IMG/VR virus record: IMGVR_UViG_3300013006_000036 | Coordinates: 1 to 60,688 of that record | DNA length: 60,688 bases | Origin: a virus | Lineage: Duplodnaviria > Caudoviricetes | Direction: 5' to 3' (one strand) | Shown: positions 13,122 through 39,314 of the stretch, one piece after another | How the letters are laid out: every line of letters starts with the position of its first letter | How positions within the stretch are numbered: position 1 is the stretch's first letter | Program-made: the position numbers and the translations under genes | Notes under the pieces: model-generated | What the model saw: only the letters and a program-made list of their open reading frames with translations | Told to the model about the DNA's origin: nothing | Database searches by the model: none

Positions 13122-13166
13122 AATATTCTCCAACTGCATAAAGTATACAGGAGAACATTATCGTGG

Positions 13167-19530: not shown

Positions 19531-19593
19531 GGGAATCCAATTAACATATACATATATTTATGACAAAATTTACTTTGGGTTATCATAGCATAT

Positions 19594-20211
19594 CTATGAA
19601 TTAATGTTTCCAAATGTAAAAAATTTTGTAAGAGTAAAGTTTATAAAATTTGCCGACAAAATTACCCTGTCTTCAAAGCTGCAATTTTTTTCAGACTTAT
19701 GCATCATCCATCCTGGAAAAAACAGAATCTCTCCCTGTTTTACTGGAACTGAATAGTACTCTTGCAGTGAACTAGTTTCATGCAGATTTTTAAGAGCATA
19801 ATGCGGATCTTGAAATTGAGTAAATCCTGATTGATCTGGTAAAGAAATATATGCTACACAACTTATCGAGCTGAATCCGTGATTATGCGGAACAGTTTCT
19901 CCGGTATGTCCGTGCCGATTTATCCAACTATTGCCTATATAAAATTGATTGCTGGTGTCTAGATTCCATTGCTTTAATATATGATTGCTTTTTTCTTCCA
20001 TCCACTTAAAGAAATCTATGAAGGCCGGGTGTCTATGTGGTGCATTATTTTGATTGTCCACTGTGCTTTGAGCATCGCCTATTTCTAAGTTGGTGTTTAA
20101 GTCTGTGGCAGCATGTAACATTTCATAAGCGGCAGCAAGATGCTTATCTGTAAATTCAAAATGATCTCGAAAAATTACTGGCGGAAAGGGAGATACTGGG
20201 CTAAGACTCAT
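19594..20211 (-). CDS. Putative 2OG-Fe(II) oxygenase (TIGR02466-like)
   Basis: SWIN, HNH, FFPGWMMH and DRVILSAN motifs. Confidence 0.85.
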   Translation of the reverse strand: MSLSPVSPFPPVIFRDHFEFTDKHLAAAYEMLHAATDLNTNLEIGDAQSTVDNQNNAPHRHPAFIDFFKWMEEKSNHILKQWNLDTSNQFYIGNSWINRHGHTGETVPHNHGFSSISCVAYISLPDQSGFTQFQDPHYALKNLHETSSLQEYYSVPVKQGEILFFPGWMMHKSEKNCSFEDRVILSANFINFTLTKFFTFGNINS

Positions 20212-20798
20212 AGATATAATTGTGTTAATGGCAAATTGTTGATTTTCCCCTTAACAAAAGTGTTGAAGCTTAGAGTAATTCTAGGTTCATTTCCGTGATA
20301 GGGTTCTACCAAATGCTCTACGTTAGAAGGAAAAATTATAATGTTGCCAGCAGTTGATTGAAAAGACCAACTTTTTGAATTGTATATCGATGCATCAATC
20401 ACTTGAAATTCTAAAGTATCATATTGACTAGTTATTAATTTTAAGTGTCCCGAATCAGCATCGCCAGATAATGTTACTACACCCGATAATATCGAATTTG
20501 GATGCCAGTGCCTATGATGACTTTGGCCTGCTTCGGTTTTATTCAGCCATGATTCTGTAATATAAATTTCAGTATCTGTAGATACTCGCATAACACCGTA
20601 AAAATAATCAGCAAGTTTATTTCCTATCTCGTCTAGCATATTTTTGAAAGGCTCTGTGCTTAAAATATTTTGACTTTCGCTAATCCAATTTTGATAGTTT
20701 CTTGCCCATTTTACAGATGATAAGTCGACGTCCACACTTGTTATTTTAGATGTTAATATAGGTTTTGAAAAGAGGGGTATGAGTTCGTCATGATTCAT
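20208..20798 (-). CDS. Putative 2OG-Fe(II) oxygenase (TIGR02466-like)
   Basis: ESWLN, HWHPNSILSGV, IFPS..EH.V and RITLSFN motifs. ATG at 20798 preferred over the track start 20840. Confidence 0.85.
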   Translation of the reverse strand: MNHDELIPLFSKPILTSKITSVDVDLSSVKWARNYQNWISESQNILSTEPFKNMLDEIGNKLADYFYGVMRVSTDTEIYITESWLNKTEAGQSHHRHWHPNSILSGVVTLSGDADSGHLKLITSQYDTLEFQVIDASIYNSKSWSFQSTAGNIIIFPSNVEHLVEPYHGNEPRITLSFNTFVKGKINNLPLTQLYL

Positions 20799-20854
20799 GT
20801 TAAAGTACCGAGTAATATGATATATAGTGTTAGTAAACAATTTAAGTGGGATTT

Positions 20855-21424
20855 ATGAAAATACAAAAAGATATAGCAACTTGGGAAAATTTAATTGATG
20901 TCACCGAGTGCAATGATATTATAGCTAGATATCACGCCTTGGAAAATTTGCAATTGTCTTTTCCCAGATTTGAATCGCCCGGTCATATTAAACAGGATAG
21001 GGCTGTATTTGTATTATCAGATGATTCTATGCGACTGACTCCAGACCTCACGATACTGCATCCATTCTTAAAGAAATTTTGGATCTGCTGGGAATCATAT
21101 CTCAAACATTATAGTGTATTAGCTGAAACAGGCAAGCATTTTGTAAGATCCATGAAAATACAAAAAACATTACCCAGTGAAGGCTATCATATTTGGCATT
21201 TTGAATCAGACGGTCTAGAAAGATGTTCTCGAATAGCTGCCTGGTCTTTGTATCTCAATACAGTAGAAGAGGGAGGAGAGACCGAATGGTTGTATCAAAG
21301 CATTCGGATACCTGCCACGGTTGGCACATTAGCTATATGGCCAGCTACTTATACACATGCTCATAGAGGAAATCCTCCATTAGCAGGAGAAAAATATCTA
21401 CTTACAGGTTGGATCGAGTGGTAA
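20855..21424 (+). CDS. 2OG-Fe(II) oxygenase, prolyl-4-hydroxylase-like phage family
   Basis: GYHIWHFE, LYLNTVEEGGETEW, WPA.YTH.HRGNPP and KYLLTGW motifs. ATG at 20855; the track start 20846 is GTG. Confidence 0.9.
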   Translation: MKIQKDIATWENLIDVTECNDIIARYHALENLQLSFPRFESPGHIKQDRAVFVLSDDSMRLTPDLTILHPFLKKFWICWESYLKHYSVLAETGKHFVRSMKIQKTLPSEGYHIWHFESDGLERCSRIAAWSLYLNTVEEGGETEWLYQSIRIPATVGTLAIWPATYTHAHRGNPPLAGEKYLLTGWIEW

Positions 21425-22027
21425 ATGGAAGTAATAAAACTATTTCCTATAGAATTTTTTAGATTTACTAACCAACAATTTTGCTCTTTGGAGATTGTTG
21501 ACTACATCCAGTCACTAAATGTTTCTCCAAAATTTAGTAGTAATATAAGCTATCAAATTCCGTTACATCGAGATCAAAAACTTGCTGGATTATTTGATTG
21601 GTTTCATATTTGTCTAGAACAGATTAGAGATACACAAAAATATGATTGCGATAAATTTAATATTAGTTCTAGTTGGTATAATCAGAGTTTGAAAAATCGA
21701 GGCATGCATCAAACATATCACAAACACACCAATAGTTTTTTTAGTGGAATCTATTATCTATCTGGTGGGTCTCCTACAGTATTTGAGGATCCTGTTATTC
21801 CACGAACCATGACACAGTTAGAGGTGTTAAGGAAAGATCATTCGCCTTTTGAAAGAACCATGGCGGTTCCGGGAAGTTTGATTATTTTTCCTAGTTATGT
21901 ATTTCATCATTCTCCGCCTCACGTAGAAAACTTTGATAGGCATGTTATTAGCTTTAATGTATTGCCCACCGGCAAAATTAATTCAAGTGCCGATGCAGAT
22001 GCATCTATAATTTTGGAGTTACAATGA
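21425..22027 (+). CDS. Putative 2OG-Fe(II) oxygenase (TIGR02466-like)
   Basis: SWYN, HKHTNSFFSGIYY, IFPSYVFH and RHVISFN motifs. Confidence 0.85.
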   Translation: MEVIKLFPIEFFRFTNQQFCSLEIVDYIQSLNVSPKFSSNISYQIPLHRDQKLAGLFDWFHICLEQIRDTQKYDCDKFNISSSWYNQSLKNRGMHQTYHKHTNSFFSGIYYLSGGSPTVFEDPVIPRTMTQLEVLRKDHSPFERTMAVPGSLIIFPSYVFHHSPPHVENFDRHVISFNVLPTGKINSSADADASIILELQ

Positions 22028-23490
22028 TCAACACACTGGGAATATTAGGAGCAGGAAACGCAGGATTGATATCAGCATTGATGCTGAGAGCGTGTTTTAC
22101 TGATTTGCCAATTACTGTGATCAAATCTACTAAAATTGGAGCTATCGGAGTGGGCGAAGGATCAAATGAACACTGGACAGAGTTTTCGAGACTTGTTAAT
22201 ATATCTGTAAATGATATTATTGTAAATGCTGGCGCAACATTCAAACACGGAATAAAATTTGTAAACTGGAAAAATGGCAATGATACGTTTTATCATAGCT
22301 TGCCCGAGTGGTTTGTTTCTCAAGATACCTATACCGGCTTGCCGTTTACTCTTATGAATTTTGTGGCTAACAACATAGAACCAAAAAAAATTGTTTATGA
22401 TCTAGCACTCGAAGGTAAGATTGCAGGCCCGTTAGGTGCAGGAGTAGGTCAATTTCACTTTGACACATTTAAATTAAATGTTTTTTTAGAAAAATTATGT
22501 ATTGATCGCAACATTAAAATTATAGAAGACACAGTTGTTAGAGTCAAATTAGATGAATCAGGCAATGTAGATAGCCTTATAGGCGAAGAATATAATCATC
22601 AATTTGAATTTTATATTGACACAACCGGATTTGAAAGAGTTATACATAAACAGCTAGGTAGTAAATGGATATCGTATCAAAATCATTTACCAACAAATTC
22701 AGCGATAGCATTTCCATCACCCTTGGATAAAAAAATAAGCACGTTCACTACAGCCGTTGCCAGAAAGCACGGTTGGAGTTGGCAAGCACCAGTGCAAGAA
22801 AGATACGGAAACGGATATGTTTTTAACAACAACTTTGCCAATGTCAACACTGTGCTCGATGAATTGCAGAAAGAGTATAAAGATAAAATTAAAATAGCAA
22901 AAGTAATTGATTTTACCCCAGGTAAAGTAGATAAATTTTGGATTAAAAATTGTGTGGCGGTTGGATTATCTGGAAGTTTTATCGAACCTTTAGAAGCAAG
23001 TAGTATAGGGGCTACTATAAATCAAATAAAATGTCTAGCGAGTTCTCTAGTGTGTTGGTCGAAAGGGGATCAGTTTATAGAAAGAAAGTATAACAAAACT
23101 TTTGATAGAGTATATGAAAATATTTTAGATTTTGTACAACTACATTATCTAGGTCAGCGAAAAGACACAGAGTTTTGGCGCTGGTGCAAGAACGATATGA
23201 TACTGACTGATTTCAATCGCGAAACCATTGACTATTTTAAAGACAACTTTGTAAGTTGGAATTTCTTTCATGAAAACAATTATGAATTATTCGACGAACT
23301 AGATTGGATACAGGTCATGCACGGTCTTGGCTTATTCAATAATGAAAAAATAAAAGAAAAATATTTGACTAATTTCCGGGTTTGGCAAAAAGTAACTGAA
23401 GAAGAGCTAAGTAGAGTACCGTCAGAAAAAACTTGGCAATTTCTTTCCCAAGAAAAAACTATAGAGCTTATTAAACAACAATACACATGA
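22024..23490 (+). CDS. Flavin-dependent tryptophan-halogenase-like protein 1
   Basis: GAGNAG FAD motif, GVGEGS, ATFKHGIKF (PrnA K79-equivalent), WSWQAP (variant WxWxIP) and FIEPLEAS. Confidence 0.9.
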   Translation: MINTLGILGAGNAGLISALMLRACFTDLPITVIKSTKIGAIGVGEGSNEHWTEFSRLVNISVNDIIVNAGATFKHGIKFVNWKNGNDTFYHSLPEWFVSQDTYTGLPFTLMNFVANNIEPKKIVYDLALEGKIAGPLGAGVGQFHFDTFKLNVFLEKLCIDRNIKIIEDTVVRVKLDESGNVDSLIGEEYNHQFEFYIDTTGFERVIHKQLGSKWISYQNHLPTNSAIAFPSPLDKKISTFTTAVARKHGWSWQAPVQERYGNGYVFNNNFANVNTVLDELQKEYKDKIKIAKVIDFTPGKVDKFWIKNCVAVGLSGSFIEPLEASSIGATINQIKCLASSLVCWSKGDQFIERKYNKTFDRVYENILDFVQLHYLGQRKDTEFWRWCKNDMILTDFNRETIDYFKDNFVSWNFFHENNYELFDELDWIQVMHGLGLFNNEKIKEKYLTNFRVWQKVTEEELSRVPSEKTWQFLSQEKTIELIKQQYT

Positions 23491-24983
23491 TAAATTCACT
23501 TTGCATCCTAGGAGGTGGCAGCAGCGGCCTAATTGCGGCGTTGATGTTTCGCAAAGCATATCCTAAGTTAAAAATTACCATAATCGAATCCTCGAAGATC
23601 GGCATTGTCGGTGTTGGGGAAGGTACCACAGAACACTGGAGATTCTTTGTAGAATATTGCGATATTCCCCTCCACGAATTATTTGAACAAACGGGAGCCA
23701 CATTTAAAATTGGAATAAAATTTACCAATTGGCATGGAGATGGCACTCATTATTTCCATAGCCTCTTACAAGACTATGGAGGAGTTGATCCCAAAAGCGA
23801 CATTGCATATACATGGTTCAAAATGATAGGAGAAAAGTGGGACCCGCTACACACATTAGGTGATGGCAGTCAAAAATCAAGACATTACGAGCCATTGCAC
23901 AATAATATCAACCAGTTCCATTTTGATACTGTAAAATTGAATAGCTTTTTGCATAACAAATGTGTTGAGCGAGATATTGCAGTAATTGACAGCGTAATTA
24001 AAGAAGTAAAATTAGATCAGAACGGATACATTAGTAGCCTCGTTGACGCTGCTGATCAAGAGCATGTTTATGACTTTTACATCGACTGTTCTGGGTTTAA
24101 AAGAGTTATCGGTGATCAGTTGGGATTATCATGGGTTGACAAGAGTGAATTCCTTCCCATGAACAGTGCTATAGCATTTCAAACTCCATATCAAGAAGAT
24201 ATTCCGTCATATACAGAAGCAACAGCGTTGAGCAGCGGTTGGAGCTGGAGGATACCTACTCAGGAAAGATTCGGAAACGGATATGTGTATTGCAATAGTT
24301 TTATCAATGACGATGCAGCTATTTTAGAAATTACAGAACATTACAAGAGTCATTTAGGAATAAGTGATATTGCAATAGGAAAGAAATTTAAATTCACAGC
24401 AGGACATGTAGATAAATTCTGGGTTAAAAATTGTGCAGTCATTGGTCTTAGCGGTATATTCGTTGAGCCTTTAGAAGCCAGCAGTATTGGTACAACCATA
24501 CAGCAATGTGCCAATCTTGTATCATCAATGCCCCATTTTACAAAGGGTCAAGAAGCTACCGCAAGTCAATATAATAAATTAATGACCAAAGTTGCAGAAA
24601 ATATTATAGATTTTATACAATTACATTATTTTACTCAACGATCAGACAGTGAATTTTGGAATTGGTGTAAAAACTCAATACGAGTCACAGATTTTAATCA
24701 AGAAAATTTAGATTATTTTAAAAAAAATAACGTAGATAACAATTTTTTTAGAGAACCTCTGCTGTTGTTTAAAACGCTTAACTTCATGCAGGTAATGCAT
24801 GGGCTGAGATTAATTGACAATCAGCATTCGTTAAAAGTATACAACGACCATTTAAGAGAAAAGTACGACGGCGAAGTTGAAAAAATGCTGATTTTAAATG
24901 CTGACTTAACAGAATCTATACCGCACCGTCAATGTATTGAAATTCTCAAAAAAAGAATTCCATTGATAAAATATAAATTTTAA
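23487..24983 (+). CDS. Flavin-dependent tryptophan-halogenase-like protein 2
   Basis: GGGSSG, GVGEGT, ATFKIGIKF, canonical WSWRIP and FVEPLEAS. Confidence 0.92.
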   Translation: MINSLCILGGGSSGLIAALMFRKAYPKLKITIIESSKIGIVGVGEGTTEHWRFFVEYCDIPLHELFEQTGATFKIGIKFTNWHGDGTHYFHSLLQDYGGVDPKSDIAYTWFKMIGEKWDPLHTLGDGSQKSRHYEPLHNNINQFHFDTVKLNSFLHNKCVERDIAVIDSVIKEVKLDQNGYISSLVDAADQEHVYDFYIDCSGFKRVIGDQLGLSWVDKSEFLPMNSAIAFQTPYQEDIPSYTEATALSSGWSWRIPTQERFGNGYVYCNSFINDDAAILEITEHYKSHLGISDIAIGKKFKFTAGHVDKFWVKNCAVIGLSGIFVEPLEASSIGTTIQQCANLVSSMPHFTKGQEATASQYNKLMTKVAENIIDFIQLHYFTQRSDSEFWNWCKNSIRVTDFNQENLDYFKKNNVDNNFFREPLLLFKTLNFMQVMHGLRLIDNQHSLKVYNDHLREKYDGEVEKMLILNADLTESIPHRQCIEILKKRIPLIKYKF

Positions 24984-24992
24984 CAGATAATT

Positions 24993-26543
24993 ATGAAAAA
25001 AATAGTCATATTAGGAGGAGGAACTGCGGGATGGGTAACTGCACTGTACATTCAACGCTACTGGCCCAAACTTGCTATCACAGTAATTGAAGATCCCAAT
25101 AGACCCCCAATCATAGCAGGGGAAAGTGGTAACACACTGTTCACTGATTTTTTAAATAGAATAAACATAAACAAAGATGATTTTATCAAGGCTACAAATG
25201 CAACACCTAAACTGGGCGGAAGATTCACTGACTGGAATGGTATTGGCACAGAATTTCTTCATGTTATGCAAACTGATCATTCACCGTGGTTAGATAATTG
25301 GGACAAATTCTTAGAAAATTCTCCAACTCTTGATATTGCGTTGAATAAAGTGTTTGCTGAAAGAATACGTAGTACGTATTTAAAAACAGTGGTGGCCAAT
25401 GATGTTCCATTGCATCATATGTTTCATTCCGGTGAATTTATAAGACAAAATAAAGTTCCACTTGGTAGTTATAGTCAATTACCCTGTGTTCCTATGTGGC
25501 ATTTTGACAGTCGTGCAGGTGCATTGTGGTTTAAAGACATCGGATTAAAACGAAATTTAGAAGTGATCCTTGGTGAATATGTGGACGGTGAGCGAGACAT
25601 TGACGGTGCCGTGACTAAAATTATTTTAAAAGACGGTAGGAAAATTGAAGGAGATTGGTTCTTCGATTGCTCTGGTTTTTCTAGATTGCTTATCAACAAA
25701 TTATTGAAAGTTGAGCAAATTGATCTCAGTGAAAATTTTCCTGCAAGAAGTGTGGTGGCTTGGTGGTCAGACTCAGTACCGTCTCTAACTACCAATGCTA
25801 TTGCTATGCAACACGGATGGTCGTGGAATATAAATCTAAGGCACAGATCAGGAAACGGCTATATCTTTGATCCGGACTGTACTACATTAGATCAAGCCAT
25901 TGATGAAGCATCAACTAGATTCAATAAAAAAATAGAACCGGTGGCAAACTTTACCTATACTCCGGGAATATCTAAATTACACTGGAAAAATAATGTTATT
26001 GCAGTCGGACTAAGTTCTGGATTTCTTGAACCGCTAGAAGCCAACGGGGTTGCAGTTATAATAGAAGCCATGTATGCATTATCGGATCATTGGCAGCCTG
26101 ATAAATCAACAAAAGAACAGTCACAACAAATTGAAAAATTTAATAATAGAATGTTTATGATCTATAACGATATCAAAGATTTCTTAGCCCTGCATTACAG
26201 AGGAAAAAGAAACGATAGCGAATATTGGAAAAAATTAAAGGATCCGCATACTATTCCAGATTCTTTAAAAGAAAAGCTTCAAGCCTGGGAAGAATTTTAT
26301 TACAAAGACGGTATTGAACCCCAGTGTTTGGGATATTCCGAGGCCGCTTGGTTGATGGTATTACAGGGTTTAGAGTGTTTTGATCACTCAGTGCTACAGC
26401 AGCGGCTGGCTGCTCGTTCTCAAGAAACTTCCGGAATAGAAATCATAAATAAGAGTAGAACATATTACAAACAGCTGGTTGATCCATTTTATACACTAGA
26501 CGAATGGATGGAAAAATCGGCTGTTAACAACAAGGAGCATTAA
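24993..26543 (+). CDS. Flavin-dependent tryptophan-halogenase-like protein 3
   Basis: GGGTAG, AGESG, ATPKLGGRF, WSWNINL (variant) and FLEPLEANG. Confidence 0.9.
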   Translation: MKKIVILGGGTAGWVTALYIQRYWPKLAITVIEDPNRPPIIAGESGNTLFTDFLNRININKDDFIKATNATPKLGGRFTDWNGIGTEFLHVMQTDHSPWLDNWDKFLENSPTLDIALNKVFAERIRSTYLKTVVANDVPLHHMFHSGEFIRQNKVPLGSYSQLPCVPMWHFDSRAGALWFKDIGLKRNLEVILGEYVDGERDIDGAVTKIILKDGRKIEGDWFFDCSGFSRLLINKLLKVEQIDLSENFPARSVVAWWSDSVPSLTTNAIAMQHGWSWNINLRHRSGNGYIFDPDCTTLDQAIDEASTRFNKKIEPVANFTYTPGISKLHWKNNVIAVGLSSGFLEPLEANGVAVIIEAMYALSDHWQPDKSTKEQSQQIEKFNNRMFMIYNDIKDFLALHYRGKRNDSEYWKKLKDPHTIPDSLKEKLQAWEEFYYKDGIEPQCLGYSEAAWLMVLQGLECFDHSVLQQRLAARSQETSGIEIINKSRTYYKQLVDPFYTLDEWMEKSAVNNKEH

Positions 26544-26720
26544 ATGTCGGATAATTTAAAAACATATGAGATTTTTTTACGAGAGTCTTTGACTTCTCTT
26601 AAAATTGTAAGAGAAACATGTCAAGCAGCAAATATCAAAGAAGCTCAAGCACACTTTCAAGCAACTTACGGAAACGGAAGAACTGTTGCAGGCCCGAATT
26701 TAGTCAAACAATCTAACTAA
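26544..26720 (+). CDS. Small hypothetical protein (58 aa), absent from the ORF track
   Basis: AAGGAG at 26532-26537, then an ATG reading MSDNLKTYEIFLRESLTSLKIVRETCQAANIKEAQAHFQATYGNGRTVAGPNLVKQSN*; fills the intergenic gap exactly. Confidence 0.72.
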   Translation: MSDNLKTYEIFLRESLTSLKIVRETCQAANIKEAQAHFQATYGNGRTVAGPNLVKQSN

Positions 26721-27349
26721 ATTTTTCCAGCTTGCTTGTCAGCAGCAATAACTCTAGCTACTTCTGTTCTTACTGCAGGGCCGACATAGTCATAGGGTAA
26801 TCCTAGACTTGGCCTTGTATCCCATTTTAACCAAGATAAATTTCCTGCAACTTTTACATACTGTAAAAAACATTGTATTTGTTTTTTTCCGGTAAATTCG
26901 TTGCGCCAATGTTCTTGAGCGTTGCCTTTATAAATTACAATATCCCCTTCATTGAGACTAATTTCGTGAGTCACACCTTGCTCTGATTTAATAAACAACG
27001 GCCAATCTACTTGATCTTTTTGTATACATACACTTATGCTTATTTCGCTGCTTGATCGATCGAAATGAGGATCTAATCTACTACCAGTGTAATAAATCCT
27101 TGCATAAGAATAAACCGGATATAATTTTTCACCTACTATATTTTCTATCACAGGTAATAGATAAACAGATAGTGCTTCAAAACACAGAGGAGCATACCGT
27201 GCGAATGAATTGGGCGATCCGTCAGCCATTGATGTATTTGGATATATCACAGAGCAACACGATTCCTGCATTTCGTATTGTATTGCACACAGCTTGCATA
27301 TTTCGGCAGGAACTGCACCGGATAAAAGTTTATAATCTTCTTGCATCAT
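26717..27349 (-). CDS. 2OG-Fe(II) oxygenase (PKHD-like phage family)
   Basis: YSYARIY..G..L..HFDR..EIS, GD..IY.G..EHWR and QCFLQY motifs. An ATGA overlap supports the start at 27349. Confidence 0.85.
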   Translation of the reverse strand: MMQEDYKLLSGAVPAEICKLCAIQYEMQESCCSVIYPNTSMADGSPNSFARYAPLCFEALSVYLLPVIENIVGEKLYPVYSYARIYYTGSRLDPHFDRSSSEISISVCIQKDQVDWPLFIKSEQGVTHEISLNEGDIVIYKGNAQEHWRNEFTGKKQIQCFLQYVKVAGNLSWLKWDTRPSLGLPYDYVGPAVRTEVARVIAADKQAGKI

Positions 27350-27900
27350 AATGGGATGAAAGATAGGTTGTCCCAAGGAAGGTGTATATTTTTAACAAAG
27401 CCATTGTTATTAGTTGAAACTATGTCAAACCCCAAGGTGATCCGTGTTCCTTCATATCTCTCATGTGCTACAACTTTGTGTTGGCGATAGCCTGGTCCGA
27501 AATATATCTGGCCTGCTGTGTTTTCTATTGCGTAATCTTTGAAATCGGTATAGGTATTTTTTGGATCGATGGATATATAACCGTGATAATCAAATACATG
27601 GCCGTGCCAATCTAACCGATCTAATTCTTCGTAGGTTATATAATTCACCCAGCATTGCAACCACAGTTCTGTATCTGTGCCCAACTGTTGTTTTATCACA
27701 CCCTGCAGTTCTTTGAATACTTTGTAAAACACAGTTGACGGTCCGGCTAGACTAAAAATATTATATCTGTCATACGACCATGTTGAATCAGTGCTGGGGT
27801 ACATTTTTTCAAATGTTTTATGAGCTTCGTGTGTATGTATAATAATATCTTGAATATTATTTTTAATATATTCTGATTGATAGATGATATAGTTATTCAT
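27346..27900 (-). CDS. Putative 2OG-Fe(II) oxygenase
   Basis: QCWVN, LDWHGH, HGYISID, QHKV and RITLGFD motifs. Confidence 0.75.
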   Translation of the reverse strand: MNNYIIYQSEYIKNNIQDIIIHTHEAHKTFEKMYPSTDSTWSYDRYNIFSLAGPSTVFYKVFKELQGVIKQQLGTDTELWLQCWVNYITYEELDRLDWHGHVFDYHGYISIDPKNTYTDFKDYAIENTAGQIYFGPGYRQHKVVAHERYEGTRITLGFDIVSTNNNGFVKNIHLPWDNLSFIPL

Positions 27901-29026: not shown

Positions 29027-29728
29027 TTATCTCACCTTGAAAAAGAATACATTAGTTAGTCTAGTATCTTCTTTGCAAGTTCCAAAAAAATTATCTGCGC
29101 TATGCCAATTTCTAGTATCAAAAATAATACATCTATTATATACATTTCCTATTCGTATAGTAGGACTAAAATGCGATCGTTGCTCTAGTCGATATTTTGC
29201 AAATTTACTTCTTTCTTCTTCAGCGGAAAATACATCTTCCATAAAAATTTTGGAATACTTGTCTCCGTTGAAGTCTATATTATCTGCATATAATGTAGTA
29301 CCCGACTCTACTGGTGCATTTGGTGACAGGTAGATCAGACCTGCGACATGCAATTTTGGATCGTCATCATGCACCCATCCAGTTCCCCAGGTCTTATCAA
29401 TTAACTGAAATCCAGTCTGCATGTCATACATTTCATTGACACCATACTCTTTGATTGCTTGGAAAATTTTTCTAATCAACAAGTTGTATAATTCTAAGTT
29501 AGAGTTGTGTAATAATTCACTCCGTAGTCCTGGCCAAGTTCCTCGTTCGCCTTTAAAAAACTCTTGGTTCAACGCCCATGATCTGACTAAATCTGGCGCT
29601 TCAAAAAAATTATCTAATATAATAGTTGGAAAGTAAGGATGCAAGTCTCTATTTTTTAAGTCAAGACGGTTGATCATCATGCGACTGTTGACTTCTTCTT
29701 GCAGATATTTTTCTACAATACTTTTCAT
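29027..29728 (-). CDS. 2OG-Fe(II) oxygenase-like protein (DUF6445-like)
   Basis: LDNFF..PD.VR, WPGLRS, GWVHDD, AGLIYL, YNRCIIFD...WHS and RLT.VFF motifs. Confidence 0.82.
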   Translation of the reverse strand: MKSIVEKYLQEEVNSRMMINRLDLKNRDLHPYFPTIILDNFFEAPDLVRSWALNQEFFKGERGTWPGLRSELLHNSNLELYNLLIRKIFQAIKEYGVNEMYDMQTGFQLIDKTWGTGWVHDDDPKLHVAGLIYLSPNAPVESGTTLYADNIDFNGDKYSKIFMEDVFSAEEERSKFAKYRLEQRSHFSPTIRIGNVYNRCIIFDTRNWHSADNFFGTCKEDTRLTNVFFFKVR

Positions 29729-30300
29729 TTGATGTTAGCTGAAAAATTTATAGTACACACTAGTCGTTTATTAAAAACTTTTGGGCAGGTGCTTGCATGA
29801 TAATGAAGTCCGTCGAATACTACAACTTTACCTTTTTTCGGTTCTGCTTTATGCAGCGGATAATACTTTTCGGCTTTTGCAGTTTCTCTAAAAATTACTG
29901 TTGATCCGTCACACTCATTTAGATAGTAGACTGCGGTCCAGTGCGGGGTTTCCATATCTCTATGAACTGCATTATGCTGATACGGACTTCCTGCAAATGC
30001 ATATTTGGTGTTAAGTAGAAAACCCAATCTTATTCTATGAACGATAGTCAATTCCATGTTTGCTTGATCTACTATGGCATTAACTAAGGGTTTGAAGAAA
30101 TCAGCATAGGGATTTTGTGAGTTCCCAGGGTGATAGATTAAATTTCCAAATGCGGGAGTAGATGATGTTTTTTCGGTGACTTTTACGTTAGTTGTATCTT
30201 CCATAAAGTGCCAAGGAAATTCTATATCTGTGACTAGATTATAAATTTTATCTTGATATTCTTGATCTATAACATTGTTAATTTCTAAAGGTTTAAACAT
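29725..30300 (-). CDS. 2OG-Fe(II) oxygenase
   Basis: FPWHF, HRD, VYYLNECDGST, PKKG.VVVFDG..YHAS and RLVCTINF motifs; paralog of 27897..28511. Confidence 0.87.
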   Translation of the reverse strand: MFKPLEINNVIDQEYQDKIYNLVTDIEFPWHFMEDTTNVKVTEKTSSTPAFGNLIYHPGNSQNPYADFFKPLVNAIVDQANMELTIVHRIRLGFLLNTKYAFAGSPYQHNAVHRDMETPHWTAVYYLNECDGSTVIFRETAKAEKYYPLHKAEPKKGKVVVFDGLHYHASTCPKVFNKRLVCTINFSANIK

Positions 30301-30327
30301 TATTTTTCCAACTTACAAACTTACTTA

Positions 30328-30987
30328 TTACAGTATGTGACAACGACTACGATATATTGGTGTGTTGATCGTGCTTATATCATTTACAAAAAAAACTAAG
30401 GTAAGTCTTTCTTGATCATTTTCTCCGTGATAGTCTTGAGCAGAATGTATGATGTGAGAATCAAAAGTTACCATCCTATTATATTTTGCATTTATAATCA
30501 CGCTGTCATTGAATTCATTATTATTACGCTGTCTAGATAACTCAACATCTTCCTCGGATACTAAATTTTTATAAAAATTTGTTTTGTCTGTCTGCTTATC
30601 GTTTAATCTTGAATTAGACCAAAGAGATCGTTTATCTAGTAACACTGTTCCACTATTTGGTGCGGGGATTGGATTTAAGTATACAATTCCGGTAATTGTT
30701 ACTCCGATGTCGTTGTGTGCCCAACCTTTACCGTATTGTTTTCCAATCTTTTGAAATCGTGCATCAACAGTCCACCCCAGTTTCTCAACAGCAAAAAATA
30801 AAGAAAAATATTTTCTTGCAAAAATGTCAAAAATATCATTGTCTATTAAATGTAGTGATTTGGTTCTAGTCCCAGGCCAATGTCCGGTAGGGTCTGGTAA
30901 AAATTCTTGAGCTAGTGCAAACTCCCGCACAGCGTCGGGATCATCAAAAAAATTATCTACAACTGTTAGAGGAATTACATGCATCAT
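30328..30987 (-). CDS. 2OG-Fe(II) oxygenase-like protein (DUF6445-like)
   Basis: VDNFFDDPD.VR, WPGTRT, GWAHND, GIVYLN, YNR.V.FDS..IHS and RLTLVFF motifs. Confidence 0.82.
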   Translation of the reverse strand: MMHVIPLTVVDNFFDDPDAVREFALAQEFLPDPTGHWPGTRTKSLHLIDNDIFDIFARKYFSLFFAVEKLGWTVDARFQKIGKQYGKGWAHNDIGVTITGIVYLNPIPAPNSGTVLLDKRSLWSNSRLNDKQTDKTNFYKNLVSEEDVELSRQRNNNEFNDSVIINAKYNRMVTFDSHIIHSAQDYHGENDQERLTLVFFVNDISTINTPIYRSRCHIL

Positions 30988-31718
30988 TGTTTCCCTATAC
31001 TATACCAATTTCTATCTGAACTCTTAGTTGGCAAATCGCTGGGGTATTTGGTCCAACATGGTATGCTTAGGCTTATTCTTTTCGAATCAGGATAAGCAAC
31101 ATGGTAGCATCTCGAAGGAATGTATAGTGCATCTCCGGGTTCTAGTTCAACATCTATTGCTGCTTGCAAATCACTTTCATTGATTTTTTTATCGTATCGT
31201 TGATTATTCAACGTTCCAATTTGATATAGACTAGAAATTCTGTTGTGGAACACTTTCCACCTGGTTTTTCCTTCAACCTGTACAATAAAATTCACAGGAT
31301 AATCGTCGTGGATGGGAAACGAATTAGATCCCTCTAAACCACAATACACATGTAAGGCAGCATTTACATCAAATAATTTTTCAAATATTTGCACTAACTT
31401 ATTGGTTGTTTCGCTATACGAAGCGTAATTCATTATTACTAATCCGTGACCGCGCCTAACTTTGTCAAATAGAAACCCTTTATCTTGAACTTGGTGATCC
31501 CATACCCATGTTTTGTTGGCTTGGGGTATATCGATCTTCATGTTAGAATCTTTATCAATTAATTCAAAATTAAAAATTTCTGGACGATTCAGGCAGCTTT
31601 CAATATCAGTCCACGAGGCAATAGCAGCAACATCTAAAATAAATTTTTTAAAAAAATGAGGAGTATCGTTTTTTAATAAATCAGTTTCACTTAATATTTT
31701 TTGCCCAATAAAGTCCAT
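30984..31718 (-). CDS. JmjC/cupin-4 (ROX/YcfD-like) hydroxylase
   Basis: SFPIHDD..NFIVQVEG.TRW.V and LEPGDALYIP...YH motifs, typical of ribosomal-oxygenase-type JmjC proteins. Confidence 0.85.
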   Translation of the reverse strand: MDFIGQKILSETDLLKNDTPHFFKKFILDVAAIASWTDIESCLNRPEIFNFELIDKDSNMKIDIPQANKTWVWDHQVQDKGFLFDKVRRGHGLVIMNYASYSETTNKLVQIFEKLFDVNAALHVYCGLEGSNSFPIHDDYPVNFIVQVEGKTRWKVFHNRISSLYQIGTLNNQRYDKKINESDLQAAIDVELEPGDALYIPSRCYHVAYPDSKRISLSIPCWTKYPSDLPTKSSDRNWYSIGKQ

Positions 31719-32316
31719 CTATTTTCCTCATAAGTTTTACATTAAATGAAATAGAAATTCTATCATTTTTTGTTCCATTTCTCTCAACACCGTGTGGTAA
31801 ATATCCAGGAAAAATGATTAATTTTCCCACCTTTGGCTGAAACGATATAGCCGATGCACTGATTGGAGTATAATTATTAACTCTAGCTTGCGATGCTACT
31901 ATATAGTCCTGCGAATAACATTTATACAGATTAATTGGTCCCTGTCCCGGTTCGGCTTTTACATAAAAAACTCCAGATATAAATGCATTATCGTGTATAT
32001 GGACAGAGTTGGTATGATGTTCTCCGTTGATGTTTACCCACATATTTCCAATGCTTAGAATACACTCGTCCTCGTCGTATCCGTAATCTCGAACACAATT
32101 TACTGCCTGATTTAATATTTTTTTATGTAGATCTGCTAGTTCTGGATATTGATCCGGATAAAAGTCTTGTGATTGCCACCCGCCTTGATTACTGAATGTT
32201 CTGCCCTTAGGGTCTTTGTTGTGCAGATCATAACATAGTTTTAATATTGGCTCAATTGCAATGTCATCAGTGTCTTCCCACCAAATAGGCGTAGGAAAAT
32301 ATAATTCGTATCTCAT
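31687..32316 (-). CDS. Putative 2OG-Fe(II) oxygenase (TIGR02466-like)
   Basis: FPTPIW, SNQGGWQS, WVNIN, HIH...ISGVFYV, IFP.YLPH.V and DRISISFN motifs. Confidence 0.9.
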   Translation of the reverse strand: MRYELYFPTPIWWEDTDDIAIEPILKLCYDLHNKDPKGRTFSNQGGWQSQDFYPDQYPELADLHKKILNQAVNCVRDYGYDEDECILSIGNMWVNINGEHHTNSVHIHDNAFISGVFYVKAEPGQGPINLYKCYSQDYIVASQARVNNYTPISASAISFQPKVGKLIIFPGYLPHGVERNGTKNDRISISFNVKLMRKIDGLYWAKNIK

Positions 32317-33116
32317 ATTCTAAAATAATCCCTTAAATTTAAATTGTTACTTATTAAATGAGAAAAGGCAAATGTATGACTCCATCTAAAATCAACATTT
32401 GGTGAAATAAAAGGAGTATGGCATGTGTTGGCTTGATACATAGATAATGTTTTTTCTTTGGTAGGAACACTTCCTAGATACTCAAACCCCCATCTAGATA
32501 ATTCGCTGTCTGGAGTGTTAAACCATCCTATATTTTTTGTAGGGATTTCTGACATAGCCCGCCATTCTTCATGCATCTTGTGCTTTGTATTAATTTGAAA
32601 GTCGTATATTAAATCTTTTACCTCTCCGTGATACTTATAGATTTTTGTGCAACTGTCTTGCAGTTCGTGATTCGTAAACCATAAATTAGCCACCATTCCA
32701 TGCTCATAATCCATATGAGGAATTCGCCAGCAACTAATAGGGTTAATGGAAGATTTGAAATATACATTGCCCCATTCGTGTACTTGCGGTTCATATACTG
32801 GAGTATCGATCTGTTGTAAATAAAAATTTCTTACCAATAGACAAAGATCTTTGTGAACCCATTCCGGAACATGCACCGTATCAAATGGATTGGGTTGGAT
32901 GGAGCTAGACAAACTATTGCTTTTTTGGATAGGAAAACAATTTATGACATTTTTAAATAATTCAAACCCGTCATTAAGAAACGGATCGTCAACGACCCAA
33001 TAGCCGATGTTATATCCTAGATCTACAAATTCAAATTTCCAGTCCGTTAACGGTTTATATTTTATAATTTGATTAAAACTATTAGCGTCTGGATCACATC
33101 TTTTAAAATTTATCAT
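32313..33116 (-). CDS. Divergent 2OG-Fe(II) oxygenase-like protein
   Basis: RIPHMD (HxD), NLWF, distal MY.A...H.P and RWS motifs, plus island context. Confidence 0.65.
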   Translation of the reverse strand: MINFKRCDPDANSFNQIIKYKPLTDWKFEFVDLGYNIGYWVVDDPFLNDGFELFKNVINCFPIQKSNSLSSSIQPNPFDTVHVPEWVHKDLCLLVRNFYLQQIDTPVYEPQVHEWGNVYFKSSINPISCWRIPHMDYEHGMVANLWFTNHELQDSCTKIYKYHGEVKDLIYDFQINTKHKMHEEWRAMSEIPTKNIGWFNTPDSELSRWGFEYLGSVPTKEKTLSMYQANTCHTPFISPNVDFRWSHTFAFSHLISNNLNLRDYFRI

Positions 33117-33721
33117 TGTATGTTGAACGTTATCACGTATCTATCTTCTGAGCTTAAATTAGGTTGCACATAATGTTTTAAATATCCAGGGAAAATTAAT
33201 ACATCATTTGTAGTTACAGAAACTTCTTGGTAAAGATGTTGTTCGGGAAAGATAGGCCAAGCCGATTTATGATATTCTAGAGGATCTTTAAAAACAATGT
33301 TTCCTGAATTAGATGGACAATTTAGATATGCTGAAACTACGAAAGTAGAATTATTGTGGTTGTGCTCAATAGTTTCTCCTAGCTCTTTGTGAAGGTTGAT
33401 CCATGAGTTAGTAATTCTATAATCTGCAGATTGAAAGTTTAGATCTCTAGCTATTCCAAGAATAATTATATCAAGCCAATCAATAAAATGCTGAAATTCA
33501 GGCCAATGATGCGGTTGCATATCTTTGTCACAACCAACTGTTGACCACGCAGCATTTTTTTCTAATAGACTATTTGTTTTTATTTGCGAAAACAAATAAT
33601 TTACTTTAGTTTTAAGCAAATTCCAATCAAACGAATATTGATATTTCCATAAGACTGGTTGAAATAAATTTATCGAGCCGTAGGATGATTGATCAGGCGG
33701 TTGATGCATCGCATAATTCAA
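33113..33721 (-). CDS. Putative 2OG-Fe(II) oxygenase (TIGR02466-like)
   Basis: SWIN, HNH, SGNIVFKDP, IFPGYLKH.V and DRYVITFN motifs. The start may be 33709. Confidence 0.87.
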   Translation of the reverse strand: MNYAMHQPPDQSSYGSINLFQPVLWKYQYSFDWNLLKTKVNYLFSQIKTNSLLEKNAAWSTVGCDKDMQPHHWPEFQHFIDWLDIIILGIARDLNFQSADYRITNSWINLHKELGETIEHNHNNSTFVVSAYLNCPSNSGNIVFKDPLEYHKSAWPIFPEQHLYQEVSVTTNDVLIFPGYLKHYVQPNLSSEDRYVITFNIQ

Positions 33722-33932
33722 CTGCTAGTTGCAATCCCATCAAACAGCCTTCCATTTTTAACACATCGCTGGACAGTTCTTGTCTTTTAGAAAAATCAAT
33801 GGCAGTAATTCCATAAGGGTTCAGTTTAACATTGGCGAAATCTACTTCTAGATCTTGCAATTCTTTTTGGAATCTTGCGTGTTCGATTTCAACCGCAGCA
33901 ATTTTATCCAGTAATGATTGTTTTAGTGACAT
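33693..33932 (-). CDS. Small hypothetical coiled-coil protein (79 aa)
   Basis: ORF with AAGGA SD inside the operon; heptad-like Leu pattern. Confidence 0.68.
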   Translation of the reverse strand: MSLKQSLLDKIAAVEIEHARFQKELQDLEVDFANVKLNPYGITAIDFSKRQELSSDVLKMEGCLMGLQLAVELCDASTA

Positions 33933-33935
33933 AAT

Positions 33936-34748
33936 TTATTTCCTTTTTGTGTAATTTTTTAAAATCTTAGACAGTCTATTTAATCTTGCAGATAAAGAAT
34001 CGGTCTTCATTATGGCACAGTTAGATGCATATACCCATGCTCTTTCTCTCACCCAGTCTTTGCTGTCGGCTTCATCAATAATTGTCTCGTATGTTCCTGC
34101 AGACAGATATTCACGTTTCATGGGAATAATATGGCACAGCGGTGTTCCAGCTTTTACTAGTGTTTCACCATGACGTTTTTTCCAAAACAGCTGAATATTT
34201 AAGTTGTACCCGTATCTACTATCTAAGATTCCTGTGGCTGAAAAAAATCTGTCTTCGTTGTTATAATGCACTGGCATCATTATAAAAACTATATCATCAG
34301 ATGCTTCTACACGCCACGGCGTTTCTATTTTTACAATAGAACTCAAGACTTCTGAGGGATCGTCTAACAAGCACGTGGTTTGATTAGGGCCATGTACTGC
34401 TGAAACATATCGTGCTACATCAGGCGGATATTCGGGTCCGGTTTTGAATCTCCACGGCTCTCTCCAGTCATATGAAATTCCTAACTCATCTACTTTGATT
34501 ATAAAATCAGCTGGTGCAGGCAATATCCAGCCTGTTGAAGTAAGTTTGAGGATCCCCGGACAATTTTTAGTCGACATCACATTAGGATCTTCTGGCCAGG
34601 CTCGATATTTTCGATTCAACTGTTTAGATGGATATATAGGAAATAGTGTTGTAACTCCTGGTTCCATAGAGTAGAATCTTACCCAAGGCTTCTTTTTCCA
34701 GATTTTTCCAAATAATTTCTTACACAGAATGCTCATCAACACCGCCAT
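33936..34748 (-). CDS. Hypothetical protein, DUF6065-like (dUTPase-like beta-clip fold)
   Basis: K.CPG...TGWILPAP.D, K..TPW, GILDS and GTPL..IIP motifs; a family I associate with phage oxygenase clusters. The start may be 34736. Confidence 0.6.
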   Translation of the reverse strand: MAVLMSILCKKLFGKIWKKKPWVRFYSMEPGVTTLFPIYPSKQLNRKYRAWPEDPNVMSTKNCPGILKLTSTGWILPAPADFIIKVDELGISYDWREPWRFKTGPEYPPDVARYVSAVHGPNQTTCLLDDPSEVLSSIVKIETPWRVEASDDIVFIMMPVHYNNEDRFFSATGILDSRYGYNLNIQLFWKKRHGETLVKAGTPLCHIIPMKREYLSAGTYETIIDEADSKDWVRERAWVYASNCAIMKTDSLSARLNRLSKILKNYTKRK

Positions 34749-36327: not shown

Positions 36328-36347
36328 TGTGTATTCCTTGTGTGAGT

Positions 36348-36355
36348 TATTTATA
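36348..36355 (-). promoter_or_regulatory. T4-type late promoter TATAAATA heading the halogenase-4/oxygenase operon
   Basis: Exact T4 gp55 consensus 20 nt upstream of the ATG at 36327, with an AAGGA SD between them. Confidence 0.8.
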
Positions 36356-36400
36356 GATGTAAAAGTAATGGATCCGCTATTGTGGTAACGACTGCTGAAC

Positions 36401-36991
36401 CTATTCGCTTAAATTAAAAGCAAGACTGATTCTTGGTTCGGCGTTATTATGAGGAAGTACCGCGTGTCGTAGATTGCTGCGAAAAACTACAAGCTGTCCT
36501 TCAATTGGCACATACACTGCTGCGGTGCTATTTAATTCTGTTTCTTGACTGGTTTTTATTGGACGCATATCAGACATAGCAAGACTGTTTTCAAAAATTA
36601 ATTTACCACTGTTAGGTGGGATCGATATGAAATACACCGCACTGAAATCAAGCCTCGGATGTATGTGCGGTTCTTGAAAATCACCTTTTTGATAAATGTT
36701 AGCCCAACATTGCTTAATTTTGTAGGATGATGTGCTGTTGTAATGTTTTGAAAATTCAGTGACTTGATCAACAACCCAATTAGAAAACGTATCTACCTCC
36801 AGACTAGAGCTTGCCAACGGATTTATTGGGCCTAGTTTATGTTGTTTGGTCCAAAAAGGCCAACCATCAATTTGCTTTCCCTCTGTGGCTGGCAGAGAAC
36901 TAGGTAACATTTTCAATAATTCTTTTTTTAAATCAGCATGCTTGGAATATATTGAGTGATATATTCCAGTCGGAAACCAATAATTTATCAT
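36401..36991 (-). CDS. Putative 2OG-Fe(II) oxygenase (TIGR02466-like)
   Basis: FPT.IY, WANIY, QEPHIH...FSAVY, FRSNLRH.V and RISLAFN motifs. ATG at 36991 lies 4 nt after TAAATA; the track start 37018 falls inside a terminator. Confidence 0.87.
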   Translation of the reverse strand: MINYWFPTGIYHSIYSKHADLKKELLKMLPSSLPATEGKQIDGWPFWTKQHKLGPINPLASSSLEVDTFSNWVVDQVTEFSKHYNSTSSYKIKQCWANIYQKGDFQEPHIHPRLDFSAVYFISIPPNSGKLIFENSLAMSDMRPIKTSQETELNSTAAVYVPIEGQLVVFRSNLRHAVLPHNNAEPRISLAFNLSE

Positions 36992-37008
36992 GCAGTATTT
37001 ATTGAGAC

Positions 37009-37037
37009 AAAAAAACACCCTAGAATTTCTAGGGTGT
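37009..37037 (-). terminator. Rho-independent terminator
   Basis: Minus strand reads ACACCCTAGA-AAT-TCTAGGGTGT followed by a T run; ends the fibre/adhesin operon. Confidence 0.82.
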
Positions 37038-38437: not shown

Positions 38438-38448
38438 TTCTTTACCTA

Positions 38449-39306: not shown

Positions 39307-39314
39307 GATGTCTC

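Follow-up and report, generated by a model that had tools for sequence, protein, structure and literature searches.

Halogenases and 2-oxoglutarate oxygenases beside adhesin-like genes in a freshwater T4-like cyanomyovirus: an enlarged cyanophage array with a possible role in tailoring fibre tips

Introduction

Cyanophage Syn9 carries an array of 10 tandem dioxygenases from at least five families, including a JmjC protein of the MINA/NO66 type (gp49), together with a pair of genes for tryptophan halogenases and one for a protein of dUTPase fold in which a cysteine is conserved; the passages of Iyer et al. 2010 (PMC2938197) that describe it propose halogenated secondary metabolites as its product. 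Here we consider a locus that, judged by its genes, is an enlarged member of this known kind of array: positions 19594-37018 (the island) of a 60,688-nucleotide (nt) stretch of viral DNA, IMG/VR record IMGVR_UViG_3300013006_000036 (the window, below, is that whole stretch). The island encodes 4 flavin-dependent halogenases (FDHs), 16 double-stranded beta-helix (DSBH) oxygenases of the 2-oxoglutarate/Fe (2OG/Fe) type, 1 dUTPase-fold protein and 2 conserved small proteins, and the reading weighed here is that its enzymes may modify the phage's own fibre-tip proteins.

The other well-described relative is VirX1, an iodinating FDH of cyanophage Syn10. According to the part of a recent review (PMC8407142) devoted to it, VirX1 halogenates many small aromatics in vitro, and it is a trimeric enzyme whose active site is large and accessible and takes bulky substrates. 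The open active site and trimeric form could plausibly suit a bulky substrate. Later genome papers count ten oxygenases of the Syn9 kind in phage S-CREM1 and 24 in S-SCSM1, without tested function.

Viral oxygenases have been thought of as modifiers of virion surfaces elsewhere. Mimivirus L230 (a collagen lysyl hydroxylase/glycosyltransferase) and the prolyl 4-hydroxylase of chlorovirus PBCV-1 are reportedly proposed to act on the viruses' own surface proteins. The likeness to the present case is that of a viral 2OG/Fe oxygenase and Gly-rich or collagen-like surface proteins of the same virus; the difference is that these are giant viruses of eukaryotes, with one or two enzymes and no halogenase. 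Halogenation of gene-encoded peptides is known from the pathways of ribosomally synthesised and post-translationally modified peptides (RiPPs), where the FDHs MibH and SrpI act on Trp of a ribosomally made peptide. The precursor in such pathways consists of a leader and a core, and the two small open reading frames (ORFs) of the island do not look so built. Bacterial neighbourhoods that join TonB receptors, SapC, tryptophan halogenases and JmjC proteins, as given in the relevant section of Iyer et al. 2010, resemble the island in having a gp52-like dioxygenase, a JmjC protein and one to three FDHs with an intact Lys, but they are cellular, are tied to uptake receptors and have no fibre genes.

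The main operon of the island (36327-26717, minus strand) is collinear with Syn9 gp42-gp54, with 31-55% identity across gp40-gp54 (24% for the gp50-like protein; tblastn). The likeness to Syn9 gp41-gp54 takes in the gp40-like protein, the FDH(s), the dUTPase-fold protein, the small protein and a run of dioxygenases that includes the JmjC, gp52-like (DUF6445) and gp54-like proteins, and in Syn9 the array likewise follows Gly-rich genes (gp38/gp39). The window differs in that its array is larger (16 vs 10 dioxygenases, 4 vs 2 FDHs) and adds both an oxygenase pair and a convergent plus-strand unit with two oxygenases, three FDHs like PrnA of P-SSM2 and the small ORF s58. It also comes from a lake virus, and the text of Iyer et al. 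on the array speaks of secondary metabolites, not of virion modification. New here are the deep conservation of the order from adhesin to oxygenases, its recurrence in isolates and the placement of promoter motifs.

Gene content and enzymes of the island

The island lies between a baseplate/fibre-connector gene and three adhesin-like genes with the Gly_rich_2 domain, and it is made up of three transcription units: 19594-20840 (minus strand), about 20855-26720 (plus strand; two oxygenases, FDH1-3 and the 58-residue ORF s58) and 36327-26717 (minus strand). The last, 9.6 kb long, has FDH4 as its first gene and p219 as its last. The gene 36401-36991 (minus strand) is separate from all three. The features, with those that adjoin them, are as follows (where motif positions are given, numbers refer to residues).

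17485-19530, minus: baseplate wedge or tail-fibre connector-like protein, 681 residues; phrog_677, E 3.7e-46; ATAAATA at 19555-19561, 25 nt upstream
19594-20211, minus: ox5_a, TIGR02466 / 2OG-FeII_Oxy_5; PF13759 55.7 bits, TIGR02466 55 bits (below cut-off); HxH...H...R
20208-20840, minus: ox5_b, TIGR02466 / 2OG-FeII_Oxy_5; PF13759 70.9 bits; H109 H111 H176 R187
20846-21424, plus: ox3_c, 2OG-FeII_Oxy_3, of the prolyl 4-hydroxylase (P4H) type, heading the plus-strand unit; PF13640 32.7 bits; HxE...H...K; likely ATG at 20855
21425-22027, plus: ox5_d, TIGR02466-like; PF13759 50.7 bits, TIGR02466 40.9 bits
22024-23490, plus: FDH1; PF04820 304.6 bits; WxWxAP; 38% identity to P-SSM2 PrnA
23487-24983, plus: FDH2; PF04820 332.8 bits; 45% identity to FDH1; motifs intact
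24993-26543, plus: FDH3; PF04820 290.4 bits; motifs intact, WxWxIN
26544-26720, plus: s58, small ORF of 58 residues; conserved core in 11 distinct orthologs
26717-27376, minus: p219, Syn9 gp54-like DSBH oxygenase; phrog_2954, E 1.3e-47 ('ferrochelatase'); invariant H104 D106 H156; 37% identity to its Syn9 counterpart
27346-27900, minus: p184, DSBH-like, HxH type; phrog_2696; invariant H99 H101 H141 R153
27897-28511, minus: ox_w204, weak 2OG-FeII match; PF13759 20.2 and PF13640 18.7 bits (both below cut-off); invariant H111 D113 H179 R190
28508-29026, minus: short DUF6445 oxygenase; PF20043 46.7 bits; HQD...H...R intact; without the internal insert
29027-29728, minus: DUF6445 oxygenase, Syn9 gp52-like; PF20043 45.8 bits; invariant H120 D122 H209 R223
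29725-30300, minus: ox3_191, 2OG-FeII_Oxy_3-like; PF13640 26.1 bits (cut-off 27); invariant H113 D115 H168 R179
30328-30987, minus: DUF6445 oxygenase, extra copy; PF20043 44.3 bits; mapped only in the closest relatives, L006-L009
30984-31718, minus: minimal JmjC oxygenase, Syn9 gp49-like, MINA/NO66 clade; PF08007 59 bits; invariant H137 D139 H206
31687-32316, minus: ox5_209, TIGR02466; 122.2 bits, above cut-off
32313-33116, minus: p267, DSBH oxygenase, Syn9 gp46-like; phrog_1644; invariant H134 D136 H233; no match among PDB sequences
33113-33721, minus: ox5_202, TIGR02466-like; PF13759 50.2 bits; invariant H120 H122 H183 R194
33693-33932, minus: s79, small helical protein, Syn9 gp44-like; 42 distinct orthologs
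33936-34748, minus: dUTPase-fold protein (AlphaFold2 and Foldseek), Syn9 gp43-like; invariant C62 P63
34720-36327, minus: FDH4, VirX1 ortholog; PF04820 351.1 bits
36348-36355, minus: T4-type late-promoter motif TATAAATA, 20 nt before the FDH4 ATG and followed by an AAGGAA ribosome-binding site
36401-37018, minus: ox5_205, TIGR02466; PF13759 77.9, TIGR02466 85.1 bits; likely ATG at 36991
37015-37037, minus: terminator-like hairpin of 10 pairs and a T run, 3' of the gp40-like gene
37058-37561, minus: gp40-like protein p167; phrog_1787; five invariant Trp; its own TATAAATA at 37581-37588
37580-40166, minus: three Gly/His-rich Gly_rich_2 adhesin-like paralogs of 285, 285 and 283 residues; PF21722 42-53 bits; phrog_863

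An earlier note on this DNA, made from the letters alone, had described about 20 oxidative enzymes of several families, tightly coupled in one island between a fibre gene and three adhesin-like genes, with no non-ribosomal peptide synthetase (NRPS), polyketide synthase (PKS) or precursor-supply gene in the window. Profiles and motifs bear out the enzyme count (4 FDHs and 16 DSBH oxygenases), and the flanks are as described (the phrog_677 match at 17485-19530, Gly_rich_2 at 37580-40166). The absence of NRPS and PKS genes from the window also stands, because every ORF of at least 500 residues is accounted for as a fibre, sheath, terminase, structural protein or FDH. A search of the window and of the conserved operon turned up no scaffold-forming, ligase, activating, methylating or export gene, and Pfam scans of the island proteins found no flavin reductase family; the reductase partner of the FDHs is presumed to come from the host. 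As for the single tightly coupled block, the gene content holds, but the block resolves into three transcription units and a lone gene.

The four halogenases that had been named from the sequence are full-domain matches to Trp_halogenase (PF04820), with 290.4-351.1 bits against a gathering cut-off of 21. Besides GxGxxG and the catalytic Lys, FDHs can be recognised by a WxWxIP motif and a conserved Glu. GxGxxG, the Lys, WxWxI[P/N] and the Glu are present in all four proteins (with WxWxAP in FDH1 and WxWxIN in FDH3), the first two being the criterion named in the portion of the review PMC8407142 on these enzymes. FDH4 aligns over its full length (residues 2-530) with VirX1 (PDB 6qgm) at 672.7 bits and has all the catalytic motifs, while tryptophan halogenases align with it only up to about residue 421-426 of 535; by this comparison it is an ortholog of VirX1. 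FDH1-3 stand far from it: they are only 24-27% identical to FDH4 and closer to P-SSM2 PrnA and the FDH of phage HTVC008M.

Eleven of the 16 oxygenases reach the Pfam gathering score (six 2OG-FeII_Oxy_5, one 2OG-FeII_Oxy_3, three DUF6445 and one JmjC_2), and two match below it (29725-30300 with 26.1 vs 27 bits, and 27897-28511 with 20.2 bits). Three (26717-27376, 27346-27900 and 32313-33116) have PHROGs family matches only, with no Pfam match; their counterparts in S-CREM1 carry a 2OG-Fe(II) oxygenase annotation, and His, Asp, His and Arg positions are invariant across 39-45 distinct orthologs. Six proteins match TIGR02466, two of them above cut-off. The six TIGR02466-like, three DUF6445-like, P4H-like and JmjC enzymes named in the earlier note are upheld by Pfam and TIGR02466 profiles. 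The pattern H-x-(D/E/H)...H...R/K is found in all 16, and the key residues are kept in orthologs. It takes the form HxD/E...H...R/K in 9 and HxH...H...R in the other 7, which are those of the TIGR02466 type and p184; in TIGR02466 / PF13759-type proteins and p184, an invariant H-x-H...H...R thus stands in place of the H-x-D/E...H usual in 2OG oxygenases. Because the catalytic motifs are intact in all four FDHs and a putative metal/2OG pattern is present in all 16 DSBH proteins, these enzymes look active.

The solved structures nearest to ox5_209 are PDB 3bvc and 2rg4, both of unknown function. Those nearest to the JmjC protein are NO66, YcfD and MINA (E 2e-6 to 4e-4), and only about residues 92-217 of its 244 align, the matched chains of these ROX enzymes (ribosomal oxygenases) being 373-489 residues long. 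Full ROX enzymes carry C-terminal dimerisation and winged-helix domains. By its alignment, the JmjC protein has the JmjC core (HxD...H), in keeping with a JmjC hydroxylase, but is not a full ROX. No member of the AlkB or TET/JBP families was matched among the island oxygenases in Pfam scans. Array genes of Syn9, P-TIM40, S-WAM1 and S-RIM44 that correspond to DSBH oxygenases of the window are named 'DNA endonuclease V', 'minor coat protein' and 'ferrochelatase' in RefSeq; these names look like errors inherited from PHROG labels.

Linkage to adhesin-like genes across relatives

A scan of IMG/VR with FDH4 brought up 176 relatives, and 80 loci (numbered with the prefix L) were mapped, with FDH identities of 45-95%. 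In 74 of the 78 loci with enough flank, the first FDH has the gp40-like gene as its immediate upstream neighbour (the exceptions are L080, L081, L083 and L085), and a Gly_rich_2 gene precedes the gp40-like gene in 73 of these 78. On the other side, at least 9 of 11 core genes follow the FDH in the same direction in 45 of the 48 loci with at least 8.5 kb downstream (exceptions L057, L079 and L081). The conserved order is adhesin(s), gp40-like gene, FDH, dUTPase-fold gene, small protein, oxygenases. The gene ox5_205, which lies between the gp40-like gene and FDH4 in the window, was mapped at that position only in L006-L009 and L082.

The same order recurs in isolates, namely Syn9, P-TIM40, S-WAM1 and S-RIM44, which belong to four named genera, and S-CREM1, whose genus is unassigned. 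The outer neighbours vary among these five: small genes with a methyltransferase, a helicase, or gp13. In L117-L134, the enzyme genes come after gp15/gp16 and converge on the gp40-like and Gly-rich genes, which are carried by the opposite strand. In the SAR11 phage HTVC008M, fibre genes are followed by a Gly_rich_2 gene (66.9 bits) and a small gene, which face an array of five 2OG genes; the small and large terminase genes of this phage are separated by an FDH gene and a further oxygenase gene. Scanning with gp065 of HTVC008M gave 9 loci, and it adds no independent lineage because most are nearly identical to HTVC008M (76-100%). A gp40-like gene was found in 20 phage records (11 phages), at least 18 of which have a VirX1-like FDH beside it, among the matches listed. 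The enzyme block, then, stays joined to the Gly_rich_2 and gp40-like genes despite changes in outer neighbours and orientation.

Promoter motifs

T4-type motifs mark late genes in cyanomyoviruses, as in other T4-like phages. The earlier note had placed an exact motif of this kind at the head of the 9.6-kb operon, and it is there: TATAAATA lies 20 nt before FDH4 and again 20 nt before the gp40-like gene, and the class of motif is conserved before FDH orthologs. Each of the 3 copies in the window precedes a minus-strand start codon by about 20 nt, though their number is not above chance, since 5.7 are expected from shuffles. ATAAATA is under-represented (14 copies vs 21.7 expected), with 12 of the 14 on the minus (coding) strand, most of them just before genes.

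Placement is better judged in relatives, where motifs of the TAAATA class were counted in distinct 70-nt upstream sequences. The motif precedes the first FDH in 34 of 55 such sequences, the gp40-like gene in 30 of 49, p109 in 10 of 26 and s58 in 7 of 9 relatives. Before seven internal genes of the operon it is rare (p270, 0/22; p267, 0/38; ox5_209, 0/39; the JmjC gene, 1/37; duf_233, 0/23; ox_w204, 0/35; p184, 1/35); some others have it more often, such as s79 (7/18) and ox3_191 (4/40). The unit 36327-26717 is therefore arranged like a late operon of T4 type, with a TATAAATA-class motif upstream of the first gene and none inside, and from this arrangement we infer that it is transcribed late.

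Other upstream regions are less regular. The divergent junction at 20800-20860, which parts the minus-strand oxygenase pair from the plus-strand unit, is only about 55 nt long if the ATG starts are used. Upstream of ox3_c there is a conserved GATATATAGT, more like an extended -10 box than a late promoter; in the relative L100, ATAAATA stands at the position of this element. The ATAAATA at 36996-37002 was considered as a promoter of 36401-36991 and rejected, lying only 5 nt from the likely ATG at 36991.

Adhesin-like, gp40-like and accessory proteins

The three adhesin-like paralogs (37580-40166) share an invariant N-terminal decapeptide, and their C-terminal domain abounds in Gly and His; its invariant residues include a single Trp and numerous His, Asn and Pro. 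T4 fibre tips have iron-binding His motifs, which the His content of the adhesins recalls. The Gly_rich_2 domain is also the C-terminal part of tail fibres of Pseudomonadota prophages. A scan of cellular genomes with the alignment of the Gly-rich adhesins gave no relatives whose neighbours could be searched for oxygenases, and tblastn of an adhesin against phage records gave 4 records only, probably owing to the low-complexity filter, and was not used as a phyletic test.

The gp40-like protein was modelled by AlphaFold2 with a mean pLDDT (predicted local distance difference test) of 86.9. Foldseek found no PDB fold match to the model at E <=0.001, and a profile of the family gave only chance-level matches among PDB sequences. 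There are 319 homologous protein clusters, and the best 120 of the 319 are unnamed or 'hypothetical'; the nearest named Atlas clusters are tail-assembly chaperones (0.86-0.87), which is a lead only. A predicted complex of FDH4 with the gp40-like protein scored 0.00 against a mark of 0.32 and is given no weight either way.

The protein encoded at 33936-34748 (AlphaFold2, pLDDT 77.9) resembles dUTPases by predicted fold alone: Foldseek matched the model to dUTPases with E 7e-5 and a TM score of 0.67 by target at about 10% identity, and its profile reached only E 0.48 against PDB sequences. In the small protein s79, the N-terminal helix varies among orthologs and a central motif, KLNPYG.T..DF, is invariant. 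Of the 48 loci with enough downstream flank, 46 have its gene, invariably placed after the dUTPase-fold gene and before the first oxygenase gene; the protein may serve as an adaptor or be a substrate. The ORF s58 begins right after the FDH3 stop, overlaps the stop of the convergent gene 26717-27376 and is conserved throughout.

These two small proteins were considered as precursors, since the earlier note had called the proposed pathway RiPP-like. Neither fits: alignments across relatives show conserved cores in both s79 and s58, no precursor of the RiPP kind, in which the leader is conserved and the core varies, was found, and no gene for RiPP recognition, protease or export was seen in the island.

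Source of the sequence and genome context

The window is the complete contig of its IMG/VR record, rated by CheckV as about 16% complete. Beyond the island it holds T4-like structural genes, two giant fibre genes among them.

1852-3441: large terminase
6632-7714: tail tube
8442-12074: tail sheath
13167-13925: gp13-like adaptor
15350-16828: gp15 sheath stabiliser
41003-54243: two giant fibre genes

A gene like those for deoxynucleoside monophosphate kinases (12465-13139; phrog_139, E 1e-52) lies between the sheath and gp13-like genes, within the structural module.

Megablast of the window gave a sole match of 61 nt, to halogenase genes of Syn9 and Syn10. The nearest isolate by protein is the estuarine Synechococcus phage S-CREM1, with 63% identity in FDH4, and the sequence was found in 20 DNA runs listed, labelled lake water, freshwater or plain metagenome. 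On the strength of the structural genes, the protein kinship with S-CREM1 and the lake and freshwater labels, the source is an uncultured freshwater T4-like cyanomyovirus. The genomes of its freshwater relatives may be unusually large for cyanomyoviruses, since a 60.7-kb contig is rated about 16% complete and related contigs (L010, L115 and L134) reach 270-278 kb.

Discussion

The interpretation offered in the earlier note, late modification of fibre-tip proteins, is the best single reading of the island, if a tentative one, because it accommodates the conserved late motifs, the tie to fibre-tip genes, the purely oxidative content and the lack of any scaffold-building gene. The most likely substrates would be the Gly/His-rich adhesins and the Trp-rich gp40-like protein. 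The operon would be transcribed late from its T4-type promoter, directly after the three Gly_rich_2 adhesin-like genes and the gp40-like gene, and its enzymes would act on these late proteins of the phage itself, while the fibres are being assembled or earlier. Hydroxylation by the oxygenases would fall on side chains such as His, Asn, Pro, Lys or Arg and halogenation by the FDHs on Trp or Tyr, with 2-oxoglutarate, Fe(II), O2, reduced flavin and halide drawn from the host. A receptor-binding tip with altered chemistry would result. Put in its broader form, that a VirX1-type halogenase and more than ten hydroxylases decorate the phage's own fibre-tip proteins (adhesins and the gp40-like protein) post-translationally, and that widespread T4-like phages of aquatic habitats carry tips halogenated and hydroxylated in this way, the proposal is perhaps better called doubtful than probable. 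Large substrates are plausible in view of the active site of VirX1, of the point near residue 421-426 where the homology of FDH4 to tryptophan halogenases ends, and of the nearest solved relatives of the JmjC protein, NO66, YcfD and MINA, which are protein hydroxylases. In literature searches, no paper came to light in which modification of virion proteins by these enzymes is put forward or put to the test.

A good deal weighs against tailoring of fibre tips. Adjacency is weak evidence, for T4-like phages are conservative in their gene order and accessory genes are known to collect at this site (Sullivan et al. 2010 list the gp16-gp17 region as a hot spot), and the counts of adjacency are not independent, many loci being close relatives. 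Late expression, which had been claimed for the island as a whole, is suggested for the operon by the motif that heads it; no such motif speaks for the 19594-20840 pair or for the plus-strand unit, which holds FDH1-3, since a scan of the window found no ATAAATA before either. The sequencing runs that hold the sequence, moreover, are all DNA runs, with no RNA run among them. The tie to fibre genes has fared similarly: it survives rearrangement, but it is broken in S-B64 and in phages with more distant FDHs. In S-B64, an FDH of the VirX1 clade (41% identity) belongs to the replication module, where SbcC and a peptidase flank it some 85 kb away from that phage's Gly_rich_2 gene, and in S-PM2, Syn1 and S-MbCM6 the FDHs have hli, talC, psbA and petE genes for company. 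In Syn1 and P-SSM2 a 2OG oxygenase still accompanies the FDH, so the partnership of FDH and oxygenase needs no fibre genes nearby, and such persisting pairs suit a non-fibre substrate. FDH1-3 group with these distant FDHs, and they are without the canonical late motif. The Gly_rich_2 domain, found also in fibres of Pseudomonadota prophages, does not generally depend on such enzymes; the gp40-like protein may simply be a chaperone; and the main texts of the virion-proteome studies of S-SM1 and S-CREM1 (Sullivan 2010 also marks Syn9 and S-PM2), figures and supplements aside, report no modification. In P-SSM2 (L141, 4398-7458), the halogenase gene is divergent from three genes and is itself followed by a PhyH-type 2OG oxygenase; two of the three bear the unchecked label 'L-shaped tail fiber protein assembly'.

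If the substrate is not a fibre, perhaps it is small. The enzymes might convert an amino acid, peptide or aromatic metabolite of the host into a halogenated and hydroxylated product during infection, along the lines of the organohalogen metabolites proposed for the cyanophage array in the pages of Iyer et al. 2010 that deal with it. The same pages link homologous dioxygenases (gp52- and gp54-like) and halogenases in bacteria to neighbourhoods with NRPS, TonB-receptor and SapC genes; the pairs of FDH and 2OG oxygenase among metabolic genes in Syn1 and P-SSM2 fit as well, as does the activity of VirX1 on small aromatics in vitro noted in the section of the review (PMC8407142) on that enzyme. We nonetheless regard a small-molecule or short-peptide pathway as unlikely: neither the window nor the conserved operon offers a gene to form, activate, methylate or export a scaffold, and the operon has late-promoter motifs, sits inside the structural module and keeps a tie to adhesin and gp40-like genes that outlasts rearrangement. 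The targets might instead be host proteins (ribosomal, translational or photosynthetic) or envelope components, hydroxylated or halogenated late in infection. NO66, YcfD and MINA do hydroxylate ribosomal proteins, the P4H-type and TIGR02466-type enzymes have no assigned substrate, and the alignments of s79 and s58 revealed no phage-encoded precursor peptide. However, the short JmjC protein matches ROX chains in the catalytic core alone, no host target can be named, and modification of the host predicts neither late motifs nor linkage to fibres; it seems quite unlikely.

Two further explanations look to the site and to the dUTPase-like fold. The island may be accessory metabolic cargo gathered in the hyperplastic gp16-gp17 region, for example to turn over 2-oxoglutarate and so tune the NtcA nitrogen-stress response of the host. 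Both the hot spot and the modulation of 2OG/NtcA (or DNA repair) by cyanophage 2OG oxygenases have been put forward (Sullivan et al. 2010), and the island does lie between gp15/gp16-like genes and the fibre module. Such cargo would hardly be expected to keep 11 different genes in a fixed order in 45 of 48 loci, even where FDH identity falls to about 50%, or to stand away from gp13-gp16 yet beside adhesin genes in Syn9, P-TIM40 and S-WAM1, and consumption of 2OG needs neither more than five enzyme families nor four halogenases. We think this explanation very improbable. As for modification of nucleotides or DNA by the dUTPase-fold protein and the dioxygenases, possibly with the halogenases, it would give the fold of 33936-34748 a role, and a part in DNA repair has been suggested for cyanophage 2OG oxygenases (Weigele 2007, as cited in Sullivan 2010). 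But that resemblance is one of fold alone, with the low identity and profile score given above; the island oxygenases gave no AlkB or TET/JBP match in Pfam scans; and late motifs and a site in the structural module would be unusual for DNA-modification genes. The chance that this is the function of the island seems slight indeed.

The search for the substrates of VirX1 and of the cyanophage dioxygenase arrays dates from 2010-2019, and it is narrowed by the linkage and late motifs described here. Since the same cassette is present in the cultured phages Syn9, Syn10, S-CREM1, P-TIM40, S-WAM1 and S-RIM44, the hypothesis of fibre-tip tailoring is directly testable. If it is false, the small-molecule interpretation of Iyer et al. 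gains weight. If it is true, the virions of these phages would have a chemistry of a kind undescribed for any phage, and enzymatic halogenation and multi-site hydroxylation would join the ways in which phages diversify or stabilise their receptor-binding proteins. The adsorption of phages in lakes and oceans would then be linked to how much iron, 2-oxoglutarate, oxygen and halide is available there.

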